Below are positions 3,016 to 13,147 of a stretch of 64,000 bases of DNA, piece after piece. The DNA is from an uncultured Acidobacteriota bacterium (GTDB lineage: Bacteria; Acidobacteriota; Vicinamibacteria; Fen-336): positions 497,624 to 561,623 of the forward strand of contig CAVTBK010000001.1 of the NCBI GenBank assembly GCA_963732935.1, in the 5' to 3' direction. How positions within the stretch are numbered: position 1 is the stretch's first letter; each line of letters begins with the position of its first letter. The position numbers and the translations under genes are program-made. The notes beneath the pieces were generated by a model. The model worked only from the letters and a program-made list of their open reading frames with translations. It was not told where the DNA came from and made no database searches.

Positions 3016-5925
3016 CTAGAAGCGGAAGCCGACCGCGAAACGGAACTCGCGGGCCAGCGGGTAGTTCGAGTTCGCCGTGCCGTTCCCGAAATTCTTGCCC
3101 TTGATGTAGTTCGTGGGCAGGCCGTTCGCGTCCTTCGGCCCGTTGTTGTCCGGCGTCACCGCGATGTTCCACGAGGTCAGCGTGTCGTTGTTGAAGGCGT
3201 TGCGCAGCTCGAGCTTGACCCAGGGCCGGAGCGTCTTCCAGACCGGCACGCTGTAATTGAGGCCCAGGTCGAAGATGTGCGCCCCGGCGAAGTTGACCGA
3301 GCCGCGCTCGCCGAAGTAGAGCGTCTGCTTGGTCGGCGGCGAGGTGTAGACGGCCGGGATGCGCGCCTTCTGGATCGACGAGAGCGGCACACTGGACGCC
3401 GTCAGGCTGCCGGTCAGGGCCGAGTCGTAGCTGTACAGGAGCGAGGGCGTGAAGACGCCGGCCCGGCCCAGGTCGAGATCGTAGGTCGTCCAGGCGCGGA
3501 CCTTGTGCCGCTGGAAGCCCGAGAGGCGCCCGAGCGGGAAGTTCCGGGACTCGACGTAGATCTCGGGGTAGTCGCCCCAGGCCGAGGCGATGCCGGGCTG
3601 GTTGCGCGCCTCACCCTCGAAGTCGCCGTAGTTCTTGAGCTGCACGGTGTAGTTCGCGTTGATGTTCCAGCGGCTGTAGGGCCGCAGGTTGGTCTGGAAG
3701 GTGATCGCCTGGTACTTGCGCGTCGGCAGGTTCGAGTTCCGGTAGACGACGTTGTCGAAGGGTCCCACCTCGAGCCCCTGCAGGGTCCCGGTCGAGCTGC
3801 CGGTCGTCGTGTCGGTGAAGTTCTCGATGAAGTTGCTGATCTTGCGGTTCGTGTAGAGGACCTTCAGGTAGCCGTTCCTGGGCAGCGCGTAGGACGCCCC
3901 GAAGGCGAACTCGTCCGTCGTCGGCGAGTGGAGCTTCGAGTCGAACTTGACGTTGACGGTCGGCAGGACTCCGCCGAAGGTCACCCAGTTGTTGGGATCG
4001 AACGCCGGCGCGAAGCTCGCGCCCACCCCATCCGGACCCGTGTAGTACTGGTAGAGGTAGCTCGGGTTGCCGACGGAGGTGTTGTTCCCGATCTGCGCTT
4101 CGCTGTACTTGCCGGCGTAGCGCGCATAGGAGGCGTCCAGGCGGATCTTCTCGTTGCCGAGCAGATCGTAGGAGGCCGCCAGGCGCGGCACGATCGTAGT
4201 GGTGTCGATCGCGTTGATGCCGCCCGTCGCCTTGCTCCGGACGATCTCCATCCGGGCCCCGAGGTTCGCCGAGAGCCGGTTCATGATCTGCCAGGAGTCG
4301 TTGATGTAGAGCGACTGGGTCGTGATGTCGAGCTCGGCGCCGCGGCTGGCTACCCAGTCGATGCGCACGTTCTCGCCGCTCACCCAGATCGGCTGGAAGC
4401 GGCCGTTGTCGAGCAGAGGCTTGCCGTTGGCGTCGGTCACGTAGTCGGCGTAGAAGACGAAGTCGGTCGGGCTCTGGGAGTTGCCGCCGGTGCGCTTGCT
4501 CCTGTAGTTCTCGTAGCCCAGCTTGATGTCGTGCCGTCCCAGCTTGCCGGTGGACAGGAAGTAGGAGAGGGCCACCGAGATCTGCCGGTTGTCCCGGTCC
4601 TCGGGGTCGGTCGCATCAAAGTAAGGGGCGTTGTAGTGCCCCGCGCCGCCGATCCCGTTGTAGATCCCCTCCGTGAAGAAGGGCGAGCCGTTCATGATGT
4701 TCGTGTCGGTCCCGCCGGCGTTCTTGAACTGGAACTTCTTCCGGGAGAACTGGGCCTCCAGGAAGAGGTTCGAGGTGAGGACGCCGCTGTAGTTGATCCC
4801 GAGCAGGCTGTTGGGCAGCGAGCGGCTGTAGTAGGTCCGGGGATCGATGCTGCGCAGGCCCGAGCTGGCCGTGATGCTGAAGGTGGGCTGGCTCTGGTCG
4901 GTCGCGTTGTAAGTGTAGGTGCCGGTGATCGTGTGGTTCTTGGCGATCGTGCCGGTCAGCTTGGCGATCAGACGCTTGTTGTCCAGCTTCGACGTGACCG
5001 CCTGGCCGAGGTCGGGATAGCTGCCGGCCGTGTCGCTCTTCTCGGACCGGCCCGCCACGAAGAACCAGAGCTGGTCCTTCAGGATCGGCCCGCCCAGCGT
5101 CGCCTCGAAGACCTTGTTGAGGGTCGAGTCGTGGGTGATGTCGTTCGACTTCTCGTACGGCGTCTCGGTCTGCCAGGTGGGGTTCGTGAGGTTGGCGCGG
5201 AAGCTGCCCTCGAACTTGTTGCCGCCGCGCTTGGTGATCGTGTTGATGATGCCGCCGCCGAAGCGGCCGTACTCCGCCGAGATGCCGGACGTGATGACCT
5301 GCTGCTCCTCGATCGCGTCCTCGATGAACAGGTTGTTCGCGGTCCCGAAGAGGTTGTCGTTCACGTCGACGCCGTCGACCAGGAACACGTTGTCGTAGGA
5401 GAAGCCGCCGCCGATCGTCACCTGGCCGGCGTTGGGCGTGTTGGTGGTGAGGCCCGGCGCGAGCGCGGCGATCGCGGCGACCGTGCGTCCGGTCGCGAGG
5501 GTGTCGATCTCGTTGGCCTGGTAGTTCGCGCCGCCGCTCGCGGTCTCGACGATGCTGGGCAGCGTCTCGGTGACGGTGATCGCCTCGGTGACACCGCCGA
5601 CCGTGAGGGTCGCGTCGACGGTCATGGCACGGCCCAGCTCGACCCGGGCCGCCTTCTCGAGCGTCTGCATGCCCTTCACCTGGAAGGACACGACGTAGTC
5701 GCCGGGGGGCAACGCCCGGAAGATGTAGTTGCCGTTCCCGTCCGACGTGACAGTGCGCACGCCCTGCAGGGCGGGGCTCTTGACCGAGACGCTGACACCG
5801 GGGAAGACCAGACCGTCAGGCGACTGGACGGTGCCGGAGATCGACCCGGTGAGCACCCCTTGCGCCTGGGCGGACCCGAAGGCCGCCAGGACGAAGAGTG
5901 CGGTCAATAGGATGTAACGCTTCAT
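3016..5925 (-). CDS. TonB-dependent receptor with N-terminal carboxypeptidase-regulatory-like domain
   Basis: AAGGAG RBS before ATG 5925. Signal peptide MKRYILLTALFVLAAFGSAQA. CarboxypepD_reg-like start (GVLTGSISGTV..DGNGNYIFRALPPGDY), then plug and barrel ending in terminal F. Confidence 0.85.
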   Translation of the reverse strand: MKRYILLTALFVLAAFGSAQAQGVLTGSISGTVQSPDGLVFPGVSVSVKSPALQGVRTVTSDGNGNYIFRALPPGDYVVSFQVKGMQTLEKAARVELGRAMTVDATLTVGGVTEAITVTETLPSIVETASGGANYQANEIDTLATGRTVAAIAALAPGLTTNTPNAGQVTIGGGFSYDNVFLVDGVDVNDNLFGTANNLFIEDAIEEQQVITSGISAEYGRFGGGIINTITKRGGNKFEGSFRANLTNPTWQTETPYEKSNDITHDSTLNKVFEATLGGPILKDQLWFFVAGRSEKSDTAGSYPDLGQAVTSKLDNKRLIAKLTGTIAKNHTITGTYTYNATDQSQPTFSITASSGLRSIDPRTYYSRSLPNSLLGINYSGVLTSNLFLEAQFSRKKFQFKNAGGTDTNIMNGSPFFTEGIYNGIGGAGHYNAPYFDATDPEDRDNRQISVALSYFLSTGKLGRHDIKLGYENYRSKRTGGNSQSPTDFVFYADYVTDANGKPLLDNGRFQPIWVSGENVRIDWVASRGAELDITTQSLYINDSWQIMNRLSANLGARMEIVRSKATGGINAIDTTTIVPRLAASYDLLGNEKIRLDASYARYAGKYSEAQIGNNTSVGNPSYLYQYYTGPDGVGASFAPAFDPNNWVTFGGVLPTVNVKFDSKLHSPTTDEFAFGASYALPRNGYLKVLYTNRKISNFIENFTDTTTGSSTGTLQGLEVGPFDNVVYRNSNLPTRKYQAITFQTNLRPYSRWNINANYTVQLKNYGDFEGEARNQPGIASAWGDYPEIYVESRNFPLGRLSGFQRHKVRAWTTYDLDLGRAGVFTPSLLYSYDSALTGSLTASSVPLSSIQKARIPAVYTSPPTKQTLYFGERGSVNFAGAHIFDLGLNYSVPVWKTLRPWVKLELRNAFNNDTLTSWNIAVTPDNNGPKDANGLPTNYIKGKNFGNGTANSNYPLAREFRFAVGFRF

Positions 5926-6236: not shown

Positions 6237-8363
6237 TCAGCTGCCGGCCGCCAGGCGGCCCGCTCGGGTCCGCCACTTCCGGGCGCCCGTCCGGTCGCCC
6301 AGCGTCTCGAGGGTCTCGGCGGCCAAGGTGGCGCTCGCCGCCGAGCGGTCGGCGTCGAACATCCTGCCGAGCAACCGGTCGACGTCGCCGTAGGTGCGGT
6401 GCAGCATCCCGTAGACGATCGCCAGACGGGCATAGGCCTGGCGGTTGCGCGGGTGGTCGGCGATCTCCCGCTCGAACGCCGTCGCCGCCTGGGCGGGGCG
6501 GTCGAGGCGGGCGAGCGCATCTCCCCTCAGGAAGGAGAGGTCGCGCGGGCGGCCCAGCCCGCGCTTCGCGATCAGGCGCTCTGCGGCGTCGAGCTGCTCG
6601 AGGGCGCCGGCGGGCTGCCCGCGGCGGATCGCGATCTCCGCCCGGAGCAGCAGCGCGTTCGTCTCGGCCACCGAGTCGCCGGTGACCTTCAGGAGGTGCG
6701 CCTCCGCCCCGGCCAGGTCGCCGCGGGCGAGCGCCACCCGGCCCAGGATCTCGTGGGCGGCGCCGGGGTTCGTGCTCATGCCGATCTCGGCGTTCCTCTC
6801 GGCCTCGTCCACCTCCCCGAGGTCGAGGCAGACCCGGGCGAGCGGCACCCCGAGCGCCGGCGCCATCACCGGCGAGGCGGTCATGGCCTGCCGGTAGGCG
6901 TCGTAGGCCTGCTTGACGTGGCCCAGGCGATGCAACACCCGACCCAACTGAAAGAGCACGTCGAAGAACTGCGGCTCGCTCTTCAGGACGCGGCGCAGCA
7001 GGACCACCGACTCCTCGTCGTGCCCGGTCGCGCTCAGGCGGAAGGCGGCGTGGACCTCGTCGAGGACCTGGATGTGGTCGCGCGGGTTCGGCAGCGGCCC
7101 TTTCGTCTCCGCCGCCCCGCCCAGATAGCCGAGCGCGGCCAGGCGCGCCATCTCCTCGGAGCTCACCGCCTCCGGGCCGGAGAAGCCGGCCGGGAACCGC
7201 GCGAGCGCCGAGCGCATCTCGCGCGTCAGCTCCGGCCGCGCGCTCGCCAGGTCACGGGTCTCGTGCGGGTCGGCCACGATGTCGTAGAGCTCGGCCCGCG
7301 GCGACTCGATGAACTGGTGGCGGGCGTCGATCACCGAGGTGAGCTCGCTCCAGCCAAGGTGAACGCGGGGGTAGTAGGTCTCGGAGTAGACCGTCTCGGC
7401 CTGGCGCCGGCCGAGCAGCGAGCGGCCCTGCCAGCCTTTCGGCAGCGGGAGGGAAGCGGCCTCGAGCAGGGTCGGGGTCACGTCGTCGAGCGGGACGGAC
7501 GCCGCGACGCGCTCTCCCGCGCGCGTGCCACCCGGCAGCTTCACCACCAGCGGCACGTGCAGCACTTCCCTATAGAGGAGAATGCCGTGGTACTCCTCGC
7601 CGTGGTCGCGGAGCCCCTCGCCGTGATCCGACAGGAGCATGACGAGCGACTGCCGGTAGAGCCCAAGGCGGCGCAGCTCGTCGAGGAGCCGGCCCACGAT
7701 CGCGTCGGCGCTGGCGATCTCGCCGTCGTAGGGATTGGCGTAGCGGCTCTTGAACGGCTCCTTCGGCTCCCAGGGCGCATGGGGCTCGTAGATGTGGAAG
7801 AAGAGGAAGAAGGGGTGACCCGCCGCCTTGGCGAGCCAGGGCAGCAGGAGGTCGAGCGTCTCGTCACCCGGGCGCTGCACGGCCCCGGCCACGTCGACTC
7901 CGGCCGGGGCGACCAGCGAGTCCTCGTAGAAGTCGAAGCCCGCGCGCATCCCCGTCGCCCCGCGCAGCACCCAGGCCGAGACGGCCCCGCCGGTCGCGTA
8001 GCCGGCCTCGTGGAGCCGCATGGCGAGGGTCGGGTGCCTGGCCGAGTCCAGGTGATAGCCGAGGTTGTCGCGGACGCCGTGCTCGGGGGGCAGGAGTCCC
8101 GTCATCAGCGAGACGTGCGACGGGAGCGTGAGCGGCGCGTGCGAGTAGGCGTTCTCGAAGAGGATGCCGTCCTTGACCAGGGCGTCGATGTGCGGCGTCG
8201 CGACCTTCGTGTAGCCGTAGGCGGGCAGGTGGTCGGCACGCAGGGTGTCGATCGAGATCAGGACGATCGGGGGCTTCACGGCCGGGCCACGCGCGCGGCA
8301 GCCGGACCCGAGCACGAGCACGGGGGCCAGGACCAGGAGCGGCAAGCGCGGCCGGCGGAGCAT
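6237..8363 (-). CDS. Sulfatase (alkaline-phosphatase superfamily) fused to C-terminal TPR repeats; lipoprotein
   Basis: Lipobox LVLGSGC. IVLISIDTLRADHL and SDHGE motifs of sulfatases. C-terminal roughly 280 aa are TPR-like helical repeats. Confidence 0.75.
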   Translation of the reverse strand: MLRRPRLPLLVLAPVLVLGSGCRARGPAVKPPIVLISIDTLRADHLPAYGYTKVATPHIDALVKDGILFENAYSHAPLTLPSHVSLMTGLLPPEHGVRDNLGYHLDSARHPTLAMRLHEAGYATGGAVSAWVLRGATGMRAGFDFYEDSLVAPAGVDVAGAVQRPGDETLDLLLPWLAKAAGHPFFLFFHIYEPHAPWEPKEPFKSRYANPYDGEIASADAIVGRLLDELRRLGLYRQSLVMLLSDHGEGLRDHGEEYHGILLYREVLHVPLVVKLPGGTRAGERVAASVPLDDVTPTLLEAASLPLPKGWQGRSLLGRRQAETVYSETYYPRVHLGWSELTSVIDARHQFIESPRAELYDIVADPHETRDLASARPELTREMRSALARFPAGFSGPEAVSSEEMARLAALGYLGGAAETKGPLPNPRDHIQVLDEVHAAFRLSATGHDEESVVLLRRVLKSEPQFFDVLFQLGRVLHRLGHVKQAYDAYRQAMTASPVMAPALGVPLARVCLDLGEVDEAERNAEIGMSTNPGAAHEILGRVALARGDLAGAEAHLLKVTGDSVAETNALLLRAEIAIRRGQPAGALEQLDAAERLIAKRGLGRPRDLSFLRGDALARLDRPAQAATAFEREIADHPRNRQAYARLAIVYGMLHRTYGDVDRLLGRMFDADRSAASATLAAETLETLGDRTGARKWRTRAGRLAAGS

Positions 8364-8469
8364 GATGCTCCGAGGATGTCGTGCCGAAGGGCCGTCGGTC
8401 AAGGCGGTCCCGGACGCCGGCTCCCCGGGCGGCGCAGCGCCGGCCCGCGGGGGCGCGGCGACGGACCCG

Positions 8470-8952
8470 CTACTCCACCCAGACGTGGACGGTGGCGTCG
8501 TCGTCGTCGATGTCGACGAGGCTCTCGCCGGAGTCCAGCGCCCGCAGGACGTCGCCCAGCGTGCGTCCGCCGGGATGGTGCCCGTCGTGGCAGTCCTCGA
8601 TCTTCAGGTCCTCGCCAAGGGCACGCACGATGTCGAGCGGCAGGTTCACCGAGACCCGCCCGTGCTTCTCCCCCTTCTCGGCGATGCGCACGCGGAACCA
8701 GCGCGGCTCGTTCTTGCGCGCGCGGACCCGGTCCCGCGAGGCCCGCTCGGGCGAGGCCTTCTCCGCGCGCCGCTCGGGGGCCGCCTTCTCCGCCGGCCGG
8801 GGCGCGGCTTCGTCCGCCGCCGGACGCGCCTCCGCCGTCACCGTCGTGCCCACCGCCTTCTTGACCGCGGCGAGGTCGTCGTCGATGCGGTCGGCCGCCA
8901 GCGGCGACGCGAGCGCGCCCAGAACCACGGCCGTCAGGAACGCCTTCCTCAT
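8470..8952 (-). CDS. Secreted hypothetical protein with conserved C-terminal about 75-aa domain shared with the upstream gene
   Basis: Signal peptide MRKAFLTAVVLGALASPLAA. C-terminus WFRVRIAEKGE..VSVNLPLDIV..ATVHVWVE aligns with the C-terminus of 8961..9806. Confidence 0.65.
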   Translation of the reverse strand: MRKAFLTAVVLGALASPLAADRIDDDLAAVKKAVGTTVTAEARPAADEAAPRPAEKAAPERRAEKASPERASRDRVRARKNEPRWFRVRIAEKGEKHGRVSVNLPLDIVRALGEDLKIEDCHDGHHPGGRTLGDVLRALDSGESLVDIDDDDATVHVWVE

Positions 8953-8960
8953 GACCCCTC

Positions 8961-9806
8961 CTACTCGATCCAGACCTGGATCCGCTCCCCCTCGTCACCC
9001 TCGATGGTGAGGATGTCGGTGGGGCCCGTCTTCTTCAGTCGCCGCCAGAAGCTCGCCGCGTCGTATCCCTCGTGGCGCAGCTCGCGCCGCGTGTCCGCGG
9101 GCAGCCCCTCGAACACCATCTCGGCGAGCGCGACGGGGAGATTGATCGCCAGCTGCGGCTTGCTGGCGCCCTTCTCGTAGATCCGCACGCGGATCCAGCT
9201 CATGGTCGCCCTGCCACTGCCGGCGATCTCCGGCGCGACGCCGAGCGCCTCGGGGTCGAGCCGCACCAGGTAGAGCTTCGCGCGGTCGACCAGGTCCGGG
9301 TCCTGCTCCTTGTGCAGGATCTCCTTCAGCACCGGCACCGCGGCCCGGCCCTGCTCCTTTCCCAGCGAGGCGAGCTGCAGGGCCGCGAAGTATCGGACGG
9401 TCCGGCTGGGGTCCGCGAGGGCCTCGCGCGCGAGGTCGAGGTAGCGCTCGCGGTCCCGGGCCGGCCTGGCGCTCTTCGCCAGCCGTACGGCGAGCGCGAC
9501 GCGGCTCGTCCGTGCCTCCTCGGCGAGGGTACGGTCGGCCGGCCGGCTGGCCAGGAACTCCCCGTACTCGGCGAGGGCGCGCTGGCGCTCGCCCAGGCTC
9601 TCGCTGCACCGGGCGATCCAGTAGAGGGCCTGCTGGGCGTCGCCGCCGCCGGAGGCGCGTACCGAGTGGAACAGAGTCCGGGCCTGGGCGTACTGGCGGT
9701 CCAGGAAGAGCGCCTTGGCGTTGCGGAGCGTCTCGTCCTGCGACTGCGCCAGGAGGGTGACGGGCGCCAGCAGCGCCAAGAGCACGAGCGACAGAACTGC
9801 TTTCAT
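8961..9806 (-). CDS. Secreted TPR/HEAT-like protein with the same C-terminal domain
   Basis: Signal peptide MKAVLSLVLLALLAPVTLLA. C-terminus WIRVRIYEKGA..LAINLPVALA..ERIQVWIE. Start ATG overlaps the anti-sigma stop. Confidence 0.65.
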   Translation of the reverse strand: MKAVLSLVLLALLAPVTLLAQSQDETLRNAKALFLDRQYAQARTLFHSVRASGGGDAQQALYWIARCSESLGERQRALAEYGEFLASRPADRTLAEEARTSRVALAVRLAKSARPARDRERYLDLAREALADPSRTVRYFAALQLASLGKEQGRAAVPVLKEILHKEQDPDLVDRAKLYLVRLDPEALGVAPEIAGSGRATMSWIRVRIYEKGASKPQLAINLPVALAEMVFEGLPADTRRELRHEGYDAASFWRRLKKTGPTDILTIEGDEGERIQVWIE

Positions 9807-10615
9807 CCTTCCAGCTCCCGTGTCATCAGGCGGATCCGCATCAGCAGCTGCCGTCGCTCGACGTCGCGGCGCACGCGCTCGACGTCGCGGCGCTTGACGC
9901 AGGCGGGAAGGTCGGCCACGTCGCGGAGCGCCATCTCGACGTCGTCCAGCACCCCGCGCGCGCTCGCCACCGCCTCGCTGCCCGCGCCCACCACCAGCCG
10001 CCTCTTCTCGAGCAGCTCGCGGCTGCGCTCCGGCGCGGCGCCGACGTCCAGCCGGCCTTCCCCGTGGTCGCAGTCGCTGCCGGTGGCCGCCACCGCCACC
10101 AGGACGTCGCCCGCCTGGCTCAGGTAGCGGACGGCCTGCTCGCGGGCCAGGTTCCGCTCGATACGCCGGAGCGCGTCCTCGCTGACGAGCGGCGTCGCCT
10201 CGGAGGGGGGGATCTCGGCACGGGCCACCGGCGCACCGGAGCGGGAGCGCTCCACGAGCTTCGGCACGGCGAGCGCGAGGGCCAGGGCCGCGGCGGCAGC
10301 GGGCAGGGCGACCAGCCAGGCACGGCGGCGCAACGGCCGCGGCCGGACCGCGCGTTCGAGGGCTTGCTCGACGCGCGCGACCAGCACGTCGAGGGGCAGC
10401 TCGGGCTCCTCGGCGCGCACCGGATCCTGCTCGATCGCCGTGACGACCACGCGCAGCTCTTCGTGTTCCTCTCGGCAGCCGCGGCAGCGGTCGAGGTGAT
10501 CGAGGGTCTCCCCGCGCGCGGGGTCCTCGAGGGCGCCGGAGGCGAGCAGCGCCAGGCGGGCGCGGGCGCGCCCGTGCTCCCGCACGCCGGCCAGCCACTC
10601 GAGGGGCGATCTCAT
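9803..10615 (-). CDS. Anti-sigma factor, zf-HC2 type, single TM
   Basis: HLDRCRGCREEHEEL zinc-binding motif. TM AWLVALPAAAAALALALAV. Start overlaps the ECF sigma stop (ATGA). Confidence 0.7.
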   Translation of the reverse strand: MRSPLEWLAGVREHGRARARLALLASGALEDPARGETLDHLDRCRGCREEHEELRVVVTAIEQDPVRAEEPELPLDVLVARVEQALERAVRPRPLRRRAWLVALPAAAAALALALAVPKLVERSRSGAPVARAEIPPSEATPLVSEDALRRIERNLAREQAVRYLSQAGDVLVAVAATGSDCDHGEGRLDVGAAPERSRELLEKRRLVVGAGSEAVASARGVLDDVEMALRDVADLPACVKRRDVERVRRDVERRQLLMRIRLMTRELEG

Positions 10616-11187
10616 GGCCTTGCCTCCCCCGCGAAGCTCCCCCGCAGACGCTGGAGCGCCCTGTGCAGGCTGCTCTTGACGGTCCCAAGGCTCATGTCGA
10701 GCGCGGCGGCGATCTCGTCGAGGCTCAGCTCCTGATAGTGCCGGAGCACGACCACGGCCCGCTGACGCTCCGGCAGCCGGGCGAGCGCCGCGCGCACCCG
10801 CTCTCCCACCTCGCGTGCGTGCAGCCGTCGGTCGGGCTCCGGGCCCGTGGCGGCGAGCGAAGGGGCATGATCGCCCTCGCCGAGCGGCGAGAAGGTCTGG
10901 GCCCGGCGCCGGTTGCGCCGCCAGCGGTCGATCGCGAGGTTGACCGTGATCCGGGACAACCAGGGCCCGACCGCCGCCCCGTCCCAGCGGGGCGCCGCCT
11001 GGAAGGCCCTCACGAAGGCCTCCTGCACGACGTCGAGGGCATCCTCCCTCTGACGCAGGTAGGCGAGGGCGATCCGATAGAGGCGGCGGTAGTGGATCCC
11101 CATGAGGGGAGCGAGCGCCTCTCGGTCTCCCGCCGCCAGACGGGCCATGAACGCCCGGTCATCGGCATCCTCCCGCACCGCCTCCAT
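10612..11187 (-). CDS. ECF (sigma-70 family group IV) RNA polymerase sigma factor
   Basis: Region 2 (YRRLYRIALAYL, DVVQEAFV) and region 4 (LSLDEIAAALDMSLGTVKSSLHRA). GGAGGGGG RBS. Confidence 0.85.
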   Translation of the reverse strand: MEAVREDADDRAFMARLAAGDREALAPLMGIHYRRLYRIALAYLRQREDALDVVQEAFVRAFQAAPRWDGAAVGPWLSRITVNLAIDRWRRNRRRAQTFSPLGEGDHAPSLAATGPEPDRRLHAREVGERVRAALARLPERQRAVVVLRHYQELSLDEIAAALDMSLGTVKSSLHRALQRLRGSFAGEARP

Positions 11188-11323
11188 CCGCTAGAAGCCC
11201 CCTCCGAACGGCGACATCGTGACATGGGACCACGAGGCGGGGCGCCCGCCGCGCCTCATGCCTTTCCCTCCGATCTGGCTAACGCACGGGCGCCCGCGGA
11301 GGTTCCTCTGCAGAGGGGTCGAA

Positions 11324-11351
11324 TTGCGCCTGCGGCGGCGCCTGCCATAAT
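11324..11351 (+). promoter_or_regulatory. Putative sigma-70 promoter TTGCGC-N16-CATAAT for the LOG gene
   Basis: -35 and -10 hexamers with 16-nt spacer, about 26 nt upstream of TTG start; AAGGAG RBS in between. Confidence 0.35.
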
Positions 11352-11376
11352 CCATACGGTGCGAAGGAGTTCTGGC

Positions 11377-12039
11377 TTGAACGACACCCGCCGTGACGCT
11401 GACTTCACCTCGGACGACACCTGGCGGATCTTCCGCATCATGGCGGAGTTCGTCGAGGGCTTCGAGATGCTCTCCCGGATTCCGAAGGCGGTCACCGTCT
11501 TCGGCTCGTCCCGCTCGCGGCCCGGCGACCCGGACTACGTCCGGGCCGAGGAGCTCGGCCGCGCGCTGGCGCTGGCCGGCCACACGGTCATCACCGGCGG
11601 CGGCCCCGGTGACATGGAGGCGGTCAGCAAAGGCGCCTTCGAGGCGGGCGGCCAGACGATCGGGGTCTGCATCGACCTGCCGCACGAAGAGAAACCGAAC
11701 GGCTACCTGACCTCCCAGGTCTCCTTCCGCTACTTCTTCGTGCGCAAGGTCATGTTCCTCAAGTACTCGAAGGCGGTCGTGATCCTGCCGGGCGGCTTCG
11801 GGACGCTCGACGAGCTCTTCGAGGCGCTCACCCTGGTGCAGACCCGCAAGATCCCGGCCTTTCCGGTGATCCTGGCGGGCGATCACGGCTTCTGGGACGG
11901 CCTGCTCGACTGGCTCGGCTCCTCGCTCCTGCGCTGCGGCAAGATCGCGGCCGAGGACCTGTCGCTCCTGAGCCGCGCGCTCACGACCGAAGAGGTGATC
12001 CGGCTCCTTGGTCCCGCCTCGCGGCCTGAAGCCCGCTAG
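11377..12039 (+). CDS. LOG family protein (TIGR00730; cytokinin riboside 5'-monophosphate phosphoribohydrolase-like)
   Basis: AAGGAG RBS 7 nt before TTG. Motifs VFGSSR, PGGFGTLDELFE, GGGPG. Confidence 0.8.
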   Translation: MNDTRRDADFTSDDTWRIFRIMAEFVEGFEMLSRIPKAVTVFGSSRSRPGDPDYVRAEELGRALALAGHTVITGGGPGDMEAVSKGAFEAGGQTIGVCIDLPHEEKPNGYLTSQVSFRYFFVRKVMFLKYSKAVVILPGGFGTLDELFEALTLVQTRKIPAFPVILAGDHGFWDGLLDWLGSSLLRCGKIAAEDLSLLSRALTTEEVIRLLGPASRPEAR

Positions 12040-12392
12040 GGCCTCGGCGGCTTCGGGCCCAGCACGGCCCAGATCAGCCAGTTCACGAGCATGATCACGA
12101 GGCTGCCCAGGATCCCGGCCCACAGACCACCCACGTGGTAGCTGGGCATGAACCAAGAGAAGACCACCAGCAGCAGCCCGTTCACGACGAAGTAGAAGAG
12201 CCCGAGCGTGAGCACGATGAACGGCAGGGCCAGGAGCAGCACGAGCGGCCGCACCACGAGGTTCAGGACGCCGAAGATGGCGCCCGCCAGCAGCAGCCCG
12301 ACCAGGCTGCCGCTCCAGGTGATGCCGGGCACGAGCCGCGTGGTCGCGTAGAGGGCGACAGCGTTGCCGGCGACCGTCAGCAGGATCTTCAT
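12036..12392 (-). CDS. 4-TM membrane protein of the phage-holin-family-IV / PF04020 type
   Basis: 118 aa, AVALYATTRLVPGI ... RPLVLLLALPFIVLTLGLFYFVVNGLLL, typical of this family. Start ATGA-coupled to upstream gene. No other phage genes nearby. Confidence 0.65.
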   Translation of the reverse strand: MKILLTVAGNAVALYATTRLVPGITWSGSLVGLLLAGAIFGVLNLVVRPLVLLLALPFIVLTLGLFYFVVNGLLLVVFSWFMPSYHVGGLWAGILGSLVIMLVNWLIWAVLGPKPPRP

Positions 12393-13147
12393 CGCGGCTC
12401 CTTCGCGGGGGGGCGGCGGGGCTCGCTGGCGGGCGGGGCCTCGCTGGCGGGCGGGGCCTCCTTCACGACGCGGAAGCCGCGCGGGACCAGGAATCGCTCC
12501 GGCGCGACCTGCAGCTCGCGGATCGTCGTGATCGTGGAAACGGTCTCCTGCGGCTCCCCGAGCACGTCCACCCGCACGCGGGTCTCCAGCGGGAAGCCCG
12601 GCAGGCCGCGGATCGCCCTCACCAGCGCGGGAAGGGCCTGACCGGCGCCCGACCACTCGATGAAGTCCGCGAACTGCCCGGCGCGCAGGGCCAGGTCCTC
12701 CGCGACCCATGCCTCCACCGTCACCGTGGCGCCGGAGAGCCGGAACCCGCGGCACAGGTGGCCCGCGATCGTCCGACGCCGCGCGAGCGGGGTCCGACGC
12801 AGCCTCTCCTCGTCCGGCCCGCTCATGAGACCGGCCGCGACCGCGGCGTCGGCGTTCGAGCGAGCCCGCAGGCGCGCCGCGTCGAGCTCCGTGGCGAGGC
12901 GCGCTTCCGGGTCCAGGCGCAGGACGCGGCCCTCGTCGAGGCGCAGAACCAGGGCGGGCCCGCCCGGCACGTCCGCTGACTCGAGACGCATCCTCGGTCC
13001 CGCGCACCAGACGCGCGAGCGCACGCCCGGCGTCGCGACGCCGTCCGGGCGCAAGACCCGGGTCGTCTGCTCGAAGTAGAGCCCCGAAGCCGGGGGTGCG
13101 GCGGGTGCGCCGGCGAGAAGGGCGGCGAGGAGAGTCGCGCTCAGCAT
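12389..13147 (-). CDS. Secreted hypothetical protein with tandem APPASE repeat at C-terminus
   Basis: Signal peptide MLSATLLAALLAGAPA. 18-bp perfect tandem duplication at 12412..12447. Confidence 0.5.
   Translation of the reverse strand: MLSATLLAALLAGAPAAPPASGLYFEQTTRVLRPDGVATPGVRSRVWCAGPRMRLESADVPGGPALVLRLDEGRVLRLDPEARLATELDAARLRARSNADAAVAAGLMSGPDEERLRRTPLARRRTIAGHLCRGFRLSGATVTVEAWVAEDLALRAGQFADFIEWSGAGQALPALVRAIRGLPGFPLETRVRVDVLGEPQETVSTITTIRELQVAPERFLVPRGFRVVKEAPPASEAPPASEPRRPPAKEPR

Follow-up and report, generated by a model that had tools for sequence, protein, structure and literature searches.

A group of four minus-strand genes, spanning positions 8470-11187 of the 64-kb window (the whole stretch of 64,000 nucleotides that was analysed), was found to follow the order sigma, anti-sigma, g3 and g4. 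Judging from sequence comparison, this locus represents one conserved ECF module of soil Vicinamibacteria which carries two or three exported paralogues with a common C-terminal domain. ECF sigma factors form one of the main signalling routes of bacteria, with an input mechanism that is unknown for most groups, and the Vicinamibacteria abound in soil, have seldom been cultured and are almost uncharted genetically. We found no literature on the ECF factors of Vicinamibacteria or on this module. Defined here are a module of four or five genes that is strictly conserved, the promoter in front of it and a domain family without a name that comprises more than 500 clusters. The module always carries exported proteins with a domain that no database names, which hints at an unstudied route of signalling from the envelope to gene regulation. 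The best explanation, to which we give an even chance, is a self-activating ECF module whose exported paralogues would act in the periplasm as partners of the sensor domain of the anti-sigma.

Gene layout, conservation and promoter

The ECF sigma gene (10612-11187, minus strand, 191 aa) was identified by Pfam and NCBIfam matches and the anti-sigma gene (9803-10615, minus strand, 270 aa) by its zinc motif and an alignment of orthologues. They are followed on the same strand by g3, which encodes an exported TPR/HEAT-like protein (8961-9806, 281 aa), and by g4, which encodes a small exported protein (8470-8952, 160 aa). All four lie where the sequence-only reading had placed its co-directional, tightly packed genes, and the overlapping sigma stop and anti-sigma start that it described is a 4-nt overlap between the anti-sigma ATG and the sigma stop codon. 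The ATG of g3 overlaps the anti-sigma stop as ATGA and a gap of 8 nt separates the g3 stop from the g4 start. The four genes are translationally coupled. Their co-expression is expected because of the ATGA start/stop overlaps, the 8-nt gap and the presence of one invariant promoter motif upstream. A scan of 8200-11500 revealed neither a sigma-70-type promoter nor an intrinsic terminator. The downstream sulfatase-TPR gene was considered as a fifth member of the operon and rejected since it is missing from all 21 related loci.

Related loci were collected by a genome scan with a g4-only alignment as the query. The order sigma, anti-sigma, g3 and g4 was observed to be kept in 21/21 species-level Vicinamibacteria genomes. 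Among 80 metagenome loci, where linkage was counted only for loci with enough flank, g3 is located upstream of g4 in 65/65, the anti-sigma gene is present in 37/37 and the sigma gene together with all four genes in 24/24. Furthermore, the same four genes occur with unrelated flanks in two distant lineages, L026 (GC 52%) and L031 (GC 65%). The proposed linkage of the domain proteins to an ECF sigma pair is thus borne out by the 21 genomes, by the 24 metagenome contigs with enough flank and by L026 and L031. The operon of many relatives begins with the gene for a third paralogue, a lipoprotein, whose profile matches the domain profile with an hhalign probability of 94% (E 9e-8). This gene is missing from the window, and a search of the rest of the 64 kb for further copies of the domain or for the lipoprotein paralogue found none.

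A candidate ECF-type promoter, GGAACC-N16-CGTT, is located at 11281..11306 on the minus strand, some 94 nt ahead of the sigma ATG, and is presumed to be autoregulatory. It shows the AAC in the -35 element, the CGT in the -10 element and the fixed spacing of ECF autoregulatory promoters. Exactly one copy was found upstream of the operon in 20/20 related Vicinamibacteria loci, with a spacer that is fixed in length and variable in sequence. Of 25 metagenome loci, 20 also carry the motif, and in four of the five others the upstream sequence is too short. L031 has the variant TGAACC-N16-CGTA at -122. We noticed that the motif precedes the sigma gene, or the lipoprotein gene in those loci where the latter comes first. 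This promoter offers a ready-made reporter.

The sole intergenic match to the conserved motif in the 64-kb window is the operon's own promoter, and therefore only autoregulation of the operon is visible and no wider regulon. Of the undescribed regulon that had been suggested, the part that stands is an autoregulatory-type promoter at the operon, whereas its wider extent found no other intergenic site in the window. Four other loose matches (GGAAC-N15-19-CGTT) were rejected as sigma targets since all of them lie within high-GC3 ORFs. Downstream of the promoter and ahead of the sigma start codon there is a conserved DNA element, GTGGTCCCATG (11223..11233, minus strand), for which neither an Rfam match nor conserved pairing or covarying pairs indicative of an RNA were found, nor a conserved upstream ORF frame. 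With the consensus CCGTG[GT]TCCAATGAC, it occurs at -22 to -64 in 15/20 related loci.

The sigma and anti-sigma factors

The 191-aa sigma protein is assigned to the ECF (group 4) sigma-70 factors, as had been proposed, on the basis of Pfam matches to Sigma70_r2 at aa 32-95 (E 5e-18) and Sigma70_r4_2 at aa 129-181 (E 3e-18) and of a TIGR02937 sigma70-ECF score of 111.6 bits against a cut-off of 42.9. Only the sigma-2 and sigma-4 domains are present, with no sigma-1.1 or sigma-3, which is the domain content of group 4. In a search of PDB sequences, the closest solved structures were found to be SigE (E 3e-24) and then SigW (5wuq, E 1e-21), and RpoE (1or7, E 1e-15) and CnrH (4cxf, E 7e-14) are also detectably related.

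The anti-sigma protein is predicted to be a single-pass class I (zf-HC2/ZAS-type) factor and the putative partner of the adjacent sigma. Its zinc motif, H14 ... H40-x3-C44-x2-C47, is kept in all aligned orthologues (alignment of 20) and shows the class I ZAS arrangement of an N-terminal H-x3-C-x2-C with a further ligand approximately 26 residues earlier. A hydrophobic segment at approximately aa 100-121 leaves this motif on the cytoplasmic side. The zf-HC2 identity given by the sequence-only reading holds for the motif and for the orthologues, 8/8 of which match PF13490 at E<0.01 (with four exceeding the gathering score of 22.2 bits), but the window copy itself gave no Pfam match at E<=1. The NCBIfam 'antisigma' model NF052375 matches at 3.8e-5, which is below its cut-off.

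The periplasmic part of the anti-sigma protein comprises approximately 150 residues and is helical and unnamed, with two conserved cysteines and a nearly invariant C-terminus, RQLLMRIRLMTRELEG. No named family covering it was found in searches with the protein and its orthologues. The two cysteines were observed in 47 of 50 distinct loci. Both are absent from L016 and L026, where the loop of g4 (described below) also has no cysteine. This suggests an association between the anti-sigma cysteines and those of the g4 loop, one that rests on two or three lineages.

The exported proteins and their shared domain

The C-terminal domains of g3 and g4 were found to be homologous, with 28% identity over 78 aligned residues (BLASTP E 3e-8), and the motif strings by which the sequence-only reading had recognised this similarity are correct. 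From the alignment of the two proteins, the domain has a size of 76-78 aa and corresponds to aa 204-281 of g3 (nt 8964-9197, minus strand) and aa 85-160 of g4 (nt 8473-8700, minus strand). An AlphaFold2 model of the g3 copy, a check proposed along with the original observation, is confident (pLDDT 86.8) and shows the arrangement strand-strand-helix-helix-helix-strand-strand. High-GC DNA gives many long spurious ORFs in all frames, and in this 72% GC genome one could suppose that the similarity is a chance or compositional artefact or that the ORFs are not genes. Such an origin is refuted by that E-value and that fold, by the conserved synteny and by the dozens to hundreds of orthologues of g3 and of g4, each with conserved domain boundaries, and we regard its probability as negligible.

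The domain family appears from these comparisons to be undescribed and unnamed. No credible named family was found in Pfam-A 2025, NCBIfam 20.0 or PDB sequences with whole proteins, domains or profiles as queries, in agreement with the earlier failure to recognise one, and none of the 41 + 196 database relatives carries a precomputed Pfam domain. The best recurrent named match, DUF5397 (E 0.025), was obtained with near-identical g3 sequences only and not in a diverse set. Matches to Tako8 and Ika were rejected, as these are designed beta-propellers that match through one repeated strand and no stretch is significant alone. It is also conceivable that the domain belongs, as a strongly diverged member, to a periplasmic regulator fold already described (for example RseB/MucB-like, LolA-like or DUF4252-type), in which case the module would be an ordinary form of an ECF group that is already known. 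We consider this improbable.

A search of 1.84 billion representative proteins with the domain profile returned 548 clusters at E<=1e-3, of which 124 remain at E<=1e-10. The domain is nearly always located at the extreme C-terminus, ending in W-x-[E/D]. It also occurs outside ECF contexts, in tandem two-domain proteins and in a fusion to a SHOCT-like domain, and the loci L023 and L114 contain it with no ECF sigma nearby, which indicates that it is not intrinsically a sigma-signalling module. In the tandem proteins, the g3-type model scores better for the first copy in 9-10 of 13 and the g4-type model for the second copy in 11 of 13. Domain-bearing genes were found to be adjacent in every context seen.

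Outside the domain, g3 begins with a signal peptide, followed by helical repeats of TPR-like and HEAT-like type (approximately aa 20-180) and a linker. The repeat matches of the window copy stay below threshold for both HEAT_2 (23.3 bits against 27.7) and TPR_6 (20.4 against 26.3), and the orthologue P0044 passes the Pfam threshold for HEAT_2 with 28.6 bits. In g4 the signal peptide is followed by the helix motif DDDLAAVKKAV (aa 23-34), which is conserved, and by a disordered Pro/Ala/Glu-rich linker in front of the domain. Both signal peptides were recognised by visual inspection of the sequence. The model of full-length g4 has low confidence (pLDDT 64). Pfam and NCBIfam searches found no enzyme domain in the exported proteins.

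In the g4 of this locus, a Cys/His-rich loop, EDCHDGHHPGG, replaces the middle helix of the domain. Loops of this type are rich in Arg, His and Cys, and exactly two cysteines are present in 123 of 194. No cysteine occurs in 38/194, and 22/194 have neither a cysteine nor two histidines. The positions of the His and Cys residues are not conserved, and a loop so poorly conserved is a poor fit to a specific ligand site.

Possible roles of the exported proteins

Operon membership alone cannot tell regulators from effectors. In the self-activating module that we favour, g3, g4 and the lipoprotein would be no mere cargo but would partner the sensor domain of the anti-sigma in the periplasm, in a role like that of RseB, CnrX or CseA. 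The exported paralogues may associate with one another via the shared domain; pairing of this kind is suggested by the existence of tandem two-domain proteins and by the constant adjacency of the domain-bearing genes. Here the scaffold, of TPR/HEAT type, would come from g3, and g4 would bring a short docking helix. A periplasmic cue would pass through the exported paralogues to the anti-sigma, which would then free the sigma and so lead to more transcription of all the genes of the module. The variable loop of g4, a candidate thiol-redox or metal site, would be the most likely input site, since this loop has a Cys pair in most members and is His-rich here. A more specific form of this proposal, which we advance tentatively and expect is rather less probable, is that the two or three exported paralogues (the lipoprotein, g3 and g4) assemble via the undescribed domain into a periplasmic complex that is the actual sensor, with a thiol-redox or metal cue acting through the g4 loop and the anti-sigma Cys pair to gate inactivation of the anti-sigma. 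This would constitute a new ECF input mechanism and a new fold.

Alternatively, g3, g4 and the lipoprotein could be outputs of the sigma, that is, envelope-protective or buffering proteins (for instance a chaperone of the periplasm, a metal buffer or a structural protein) produced on sigma release and exerting at most feedback like Spy, CpxP and ZraP. Their cotranscription from a sigma-dependent-looking promoter, with no other target site visible in the window, is in keeping with this, as are the resemblance of the His/Cys-rich g4 loop and the long acidic Pro-rich linker to metal-buffering or chaperone proteins and the occurrence of domain relatives with no sigma factor nearby. However, effector genes within ECF regulons tend to be scattered and exchangeable, and the absolute co-inheritance of g3, g4 and the lipoprotein gene with one sigma/anti-sigma pair and its periplasmic domain, which holds in divergent lineages whose flanks differ, is what one would rather expect of signalling partners. 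We therefore regard the output role as possible but somewhat unlikely. Should the paralogues be the sensor, ECF signalling would gain a new class of accessory proteins as well as a new small fold; as effectors, they would make up a new class of envelope proteins. The domain family merits a database entry under either reading.

The proposed partner role can be compared with several known systems. RpoE-RseA-RseB(-RseC) of Escherichia coli and AlgU-MucA-MucB of Pseudomonas are autoregulated operons in which a periplasmic protein binds the anti-sigma and modulates its proteolysis. Like the present locus, they combine an ECF sigma, here related to RpoE and AlgU-type factors, with a single-pass anti-sigma that has a periplasmic domain and with a co-transcribed periplasmic protein. 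Unlike it, RseA is not a zinc-motif anti-sigma and there is one accessory protein instead of two or three paralogues. A MucB_RseB match was sought for g3 and g4, and no similarity to RseB/MucB in sequence or fold was found.

In CnrH-CnrY-CnrX of Cupriavidus metallidurans, the His residues of a small periplasmic sensor bind metal and relay the signal to a membrane anti-sigma. The combination of sigma, membrane anti-sigma and small periplasmic protein is common to both systems, CnrH is a relative of the sigma described here and the g4 loop of this locus is His-rich. In contrast, CnrX is an all-helical dimer, CnrY is very short and most g4 relatives have a Cys pair and not a His cluster; PDB sequence and fold searches gave no match between g4 and CnrX. 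In SigE-CseA-CseB-CseC of Streptomyces coelicolor, the lipoprotein CseA modulates sigma activity from outside the membrane. This ECF sigma operon resembles the many relatives of our locus that begin with a lipoprotein paralogue, but it uses a two-component system where an anti-sigma is found here, CseA is unrelated in sequence and the window has no lipoprotein gene.

Finally, RsiW of Bacillus subtilis is, like the anti-sigma of this locus, a single-pass zinc-motif protein. Its extracytoplasmic domain is unrelated to the periplasmic domain found here, which has no named family, and we know of no paralogous periplasmic partners co-encoded with RsiW. Its cognate SigW, the second closest solved sigma, uses promoters of the type TGAAAC-N16-CGTA, which resemble both GGAACC-N16-CGTT and the TGAACC-N16-CGTA of L031.

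Gene layout and the shared C-terminal domain

The operon read from the sequence alone as four tightly packed minus-strand genes was confirmed in a region of 72-73% GC. The sigma gene (10612-11187, 191 aa) is followed by the anti-sigma gene (9803-10615, 270 aa), with a 4-nt overlap between its ATG and the sigma stop. The ATG of g3 (8961-9806, 281 aa) in turn overlaps the anti-sigma stop as ATGA, and g4 (8470-8952, 160 aa) starts 8 nt past the g3 stop. The sigma protein matches Sigma70_r2 (5e-18) and Sigma70_r4_2 (3e-18) of Pfam and scores 111.6 bits against TIGR02937 (cut-off 42.9); by these matches it is classed as a standard ECF factor. Its closest solved relatives are SigE (3e-24), SigW (1e-21), RpoE (1e-15) and CnrH (7e-14).

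The homologous C-terminal domain claimed for g3 and g4 was recovered at residues 204-281 and 85-160 respectively, with a pairwise identity of 28% (E 3e-8), and the remark that it was not recognised as a named family also held. Neither Pfam nor NCBIfam gave a credible match for g3, g4, their domains or any of 73 domain sequences scanned singly, and PDB sequence searches returned nothing real. When a domain profile was run against 1.84 billion representative proteins, 548 clusters were recovered at E<=1e-3, of which 124 reached E<=1e-10. All database relatives are labelled as hypothetical, carry no precomputed Pfam domain and originate from metagenomes or metagenome-assembled genomes.

Four architectures were observed, as judged from the sequences and domain boundaries, and were counted in a census of 298 family sequences. 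In the dominant g4-type (about 130-165 aa), the signal peptide is followed by the conserved helix motif [ED]DDLxVVK[KR]AV and, after a linker of low complexity, by the domain; 194 sequences fit the strict motif pattern, with a signal peptide in 182 of them by a crude test, and many of the 49 unclassified sequences fit a looser pattern. The g3-type (about 270-310 aa) carries TPR/HEAT-like repeats between signal peptide and domain, and in tandem proteins (about 185 aa) two domain copies follow the signal peptide. In P0159 (L028, 88-483) and P0183, two proteins without a signal peptide, the domain follows an N-terminal SHOCT-like_DUF2089-C domain, which is otherwise known from YvlB/LiaX-type envelope-stress proteins. 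In the g4-type domain a loop with a median of 23 residues substitutes for the middle helix and has a high content of Arg (14%), Gly, Asp, Cys (6.5%) and His (5.8%). Exactly two cysteines are present in 123 of the 194 g4-type loops and none in 38, and the variant loop of the window g4 contains one Cys and four His. The low-confidence model of full-length g4 (pLDDT 64) is consistent with a helix at 23-34 that is joined by a disordered linker (35-84) to the domain at 85-160. The domain forms the C-terminal end of the protein in 285 of 298 sequences, nearly all of which finish with [VI]-W-[VIL]-[ED]. One idea is that this strict position may leave a free C-terminus for PDZ-type protease recognition.

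Linkage to the sigma pair

A scan that took one genome per species recovered g4 relatives in 21 genomes, each of which is a Vicinamibacteria or Acidobacteriota assembly. All 21 keep the genes in the order sigma, anti-sigma, g3, g4, with one locus cut by a contig end and one containing frame errors. The sigma proteins are 58-76% identical to that of the window, the anti-sigma proteins 41-70%, the g3 proteins 47-67% and the g4 proteins 36-63%. When metagenomes were scanned with a more distant g4 alignment, 80 loci were obtained. Among those with sufficient sequence ahead of g4, the g3 domain directly precedes it in 65/65, the anti-sigma gene is present in 37/37, and sigma together with all four genes in 24/24.

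The same arrangement was observed in two loci holding far more distant g3-type proteins. L026 (GC 52%) encodes Sigma70, zf-HC2, g3-type (292 aa) and g4-type (130 aa) proteins in that order, and L031 (GC 65%) encodes a sigma of 198 aa, an anti-sigma of 267 aa with HLEGCPAC and a periplasmic domain like that of the window, and g3-type and g4-type proteins of 286 and 128 aa. Their flanking genes are unrelated, which argues that the linkage is functional, beyond inherited synteny. The sequence-only reading had proposed this linkage, and it is upheld by the genomes, the metagenome loci and both distant loci. Its interpretation is thereby partly supported, with the anatomy, the unnamed status of the domain and the linkage borne out; the ligand, stress and regulon roles that it suggested are putative. 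The domain is not confined to sigma signalling, since the tandem-type genes on two long contigs, L023 (6001-7042) and L114 (5001-6045), have no ECF sigma within 5-6 kb. Both genes lie after amidohydrolase genes and before a gene of 155-171 aa, which in L023 matches the domain weakly. We also noticed a Phosphodiest and TPR gene 3.6 kb away from the tandem-type gene of L114.

About 70-100 nt downstream of g4 lies a gene for a sulfatase and TPR protein (6237-8402, minus strand, 721 aa) with a lipoprotein-type signal (…LVLGSGC); no terminator was detected between the two, and this neighbour is not conserved beside the operon in the 21 related loci. Upstream are a divergent LOG-family gene (Lysine_decarbox), a Phage_holin_4_2 (YvlD-like) membrane protein gene and a DUF4412 gene (window about 11392-13147). 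DUF4412 was found at this side in 19/21 related Vicinamibacteria loci and all three genes in L001, and none of them was seen in L026 or L031.

Promoter and lipoprotein paralogue

The ECF promoter GGAACC, with a 16-nt spacer before CGTT, is located at 11281-11306 on the minus strand, upstream of the sigma gene. Exactly one such motif was found per locus in 20/20 related loci, and it likewise occurs in 20/25 metagenome loci, where four of the remaining five lack the required upstream sequence. Both boxes and the spacer length are constant and the spacer sequence is variable; the L031 counterpart is TGAACC-N16-CGTA at -122. A single conserved upstream motif of this kind typically marks an autoregulated ECF operon, and we infer that this sigma factor in particular would drive the promoter. 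Five matches to a looser pattern occur in the window against one expected; the other four were rejected as target sites because all lie within coding ORFs.

Where sigma is the first gene, the distance from the motif to the sigma ATG is 39-190 nt; where a lipoprotein gene is present, the motif lies upstream of that gene and 424-580 nt before the sigma ATG. The lipoprotein gene (about 125-135 aa) directly precedes sigma in 8/20 Vicinamibacteria loci (L005, at 3273-3677, and L007, L013, L015, L018, L020, L021 and L022) and in 19/25 metagenome loci, for example L037 (3254-3751); L019 retains a mere remnant, and no copy is present anywhere in the 64-kb window. Its products have a lipobox of the type L-A-A-G-C and a C-terminus ...LVEVEEEDGDQVLVWLR, ending in VWL[RKSQ] whereas the domain family ends in [VI]-W-[VIL]-[E/D]. 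The lipoprotein profile aligns with the domain profile (hhalign probability 94%, E 9e-8), and the lipoprotein HMM cross-matches g4 proteins.

A second conserved element, CCGTG[GT]TCCAATGAC, was observed at 11223-11233 (minus strand) and in related loci L001-L019, L099 and L100, 22-67 nt before the sigma start codon; it either follows the ECF promoter or lies in the interval that separates the lipoprotein and sigma genes. It showed no Rfam match, conserved RNA pairing or conserved upstream ORF frame and may be an operator or second promoter.

The anti-sigma factor and its putative periplasmic partners

The window anti-sigma has no Pfam family match at E<=1. It contains the zinc motif H14 with H40-x3-C44-x2-C47, a hydrophobic segment (about residues 100-121) and, at the C-terminal end, a helical part of about 150 aa. 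Of the eight orthologues searched, all match zf-HC2 (E<0.01) and four exceed the gathering score, and an alignment of 20 orthologues shows the zinc motif, two periplasmic cysteines and the C-terminus RQLLMRIRLMTRELEG to be invariant. The periplasmic part is covered by no family. The periplasmic Cys pair is kept in 47 of 50 distinct loci. Both cysteines are missing from the anti-sigma of L016 (gene at about 4232-5398) and of L026 (5296-6000), where the g4 loops also contain none, and L031 has one in each of the two proteins. Loss of both anti-sigma cysteines together fits a disulfide pair, and these two to three events give a hint of a thiol link between the Cys pair and the g4 loop.

These comparisons show a conserved unit, predicted to be co-transcribed, in which sigma and a membrane anti-sigma, marked by its distinctive periplasmic domain, are accompanied by two to three exported paralogues. 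The unit resembles in its logic RpoE-RseA-RseB, in which the periplasmic modulator acts on the anti-sigma, CnrH-CnrY-CnrX, in which a small periplasmic protein senses metal, and the sigE operon of Streptomyces with its lipoprotein CseA. However, its proteins match neither the RseB nor the CnrX family in sequence or fold and are members of neither. Within their own families, the sigma and anti-sigma are ordinary; what is new is the accessory domain family, with its two to three paralogous copies, and the unnamed periplasmic domain of the anti-sigma. A literature search found no paper on this module, which is a solid and clearly bounded lead in a neglected phylum. In kind the module is unsurprising, since conserved but uncharacterised neighbours are found in many ECF groups.

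The exported paralogues, which lack enzyme domains, would act as periplasmic partners of the anti-sigma factor, a model to which we give about an even chance. Under a rather doubtful alternative, they would serve as stress effectors or buffers and at most feed back on signalling. The partner model draws on their absolute co-inheritance with one sigma/anti-sigma pair across divergent lineages, and also on the combination of g3 and g4 and the possible thiol link. Here g3 would contribute the TPR/HEAT scaffold and g4 the conserved short helix, which we infer to be a typical scaffold-and-peptide combination. The model is also supported by the domain-bearing genes, which are always adjacent in the contexts seen. 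Furthermore, the first copy in tandem proteins is g3-domain-like in 9-10 of 13 and the second g4-domain-like in 11 of 13, a fusion pattern which suggests that the g3 and g4 domains pair. In one metagenome protein of 215 aa (P0059), a g3-type C-terminal domain runs directly into a g4-type signal peptide and EDDLAVVKRAV, probably because a stop codon was lost or the assembly contains an error. The read-through is an independent sign of g3/g4 adjacency.
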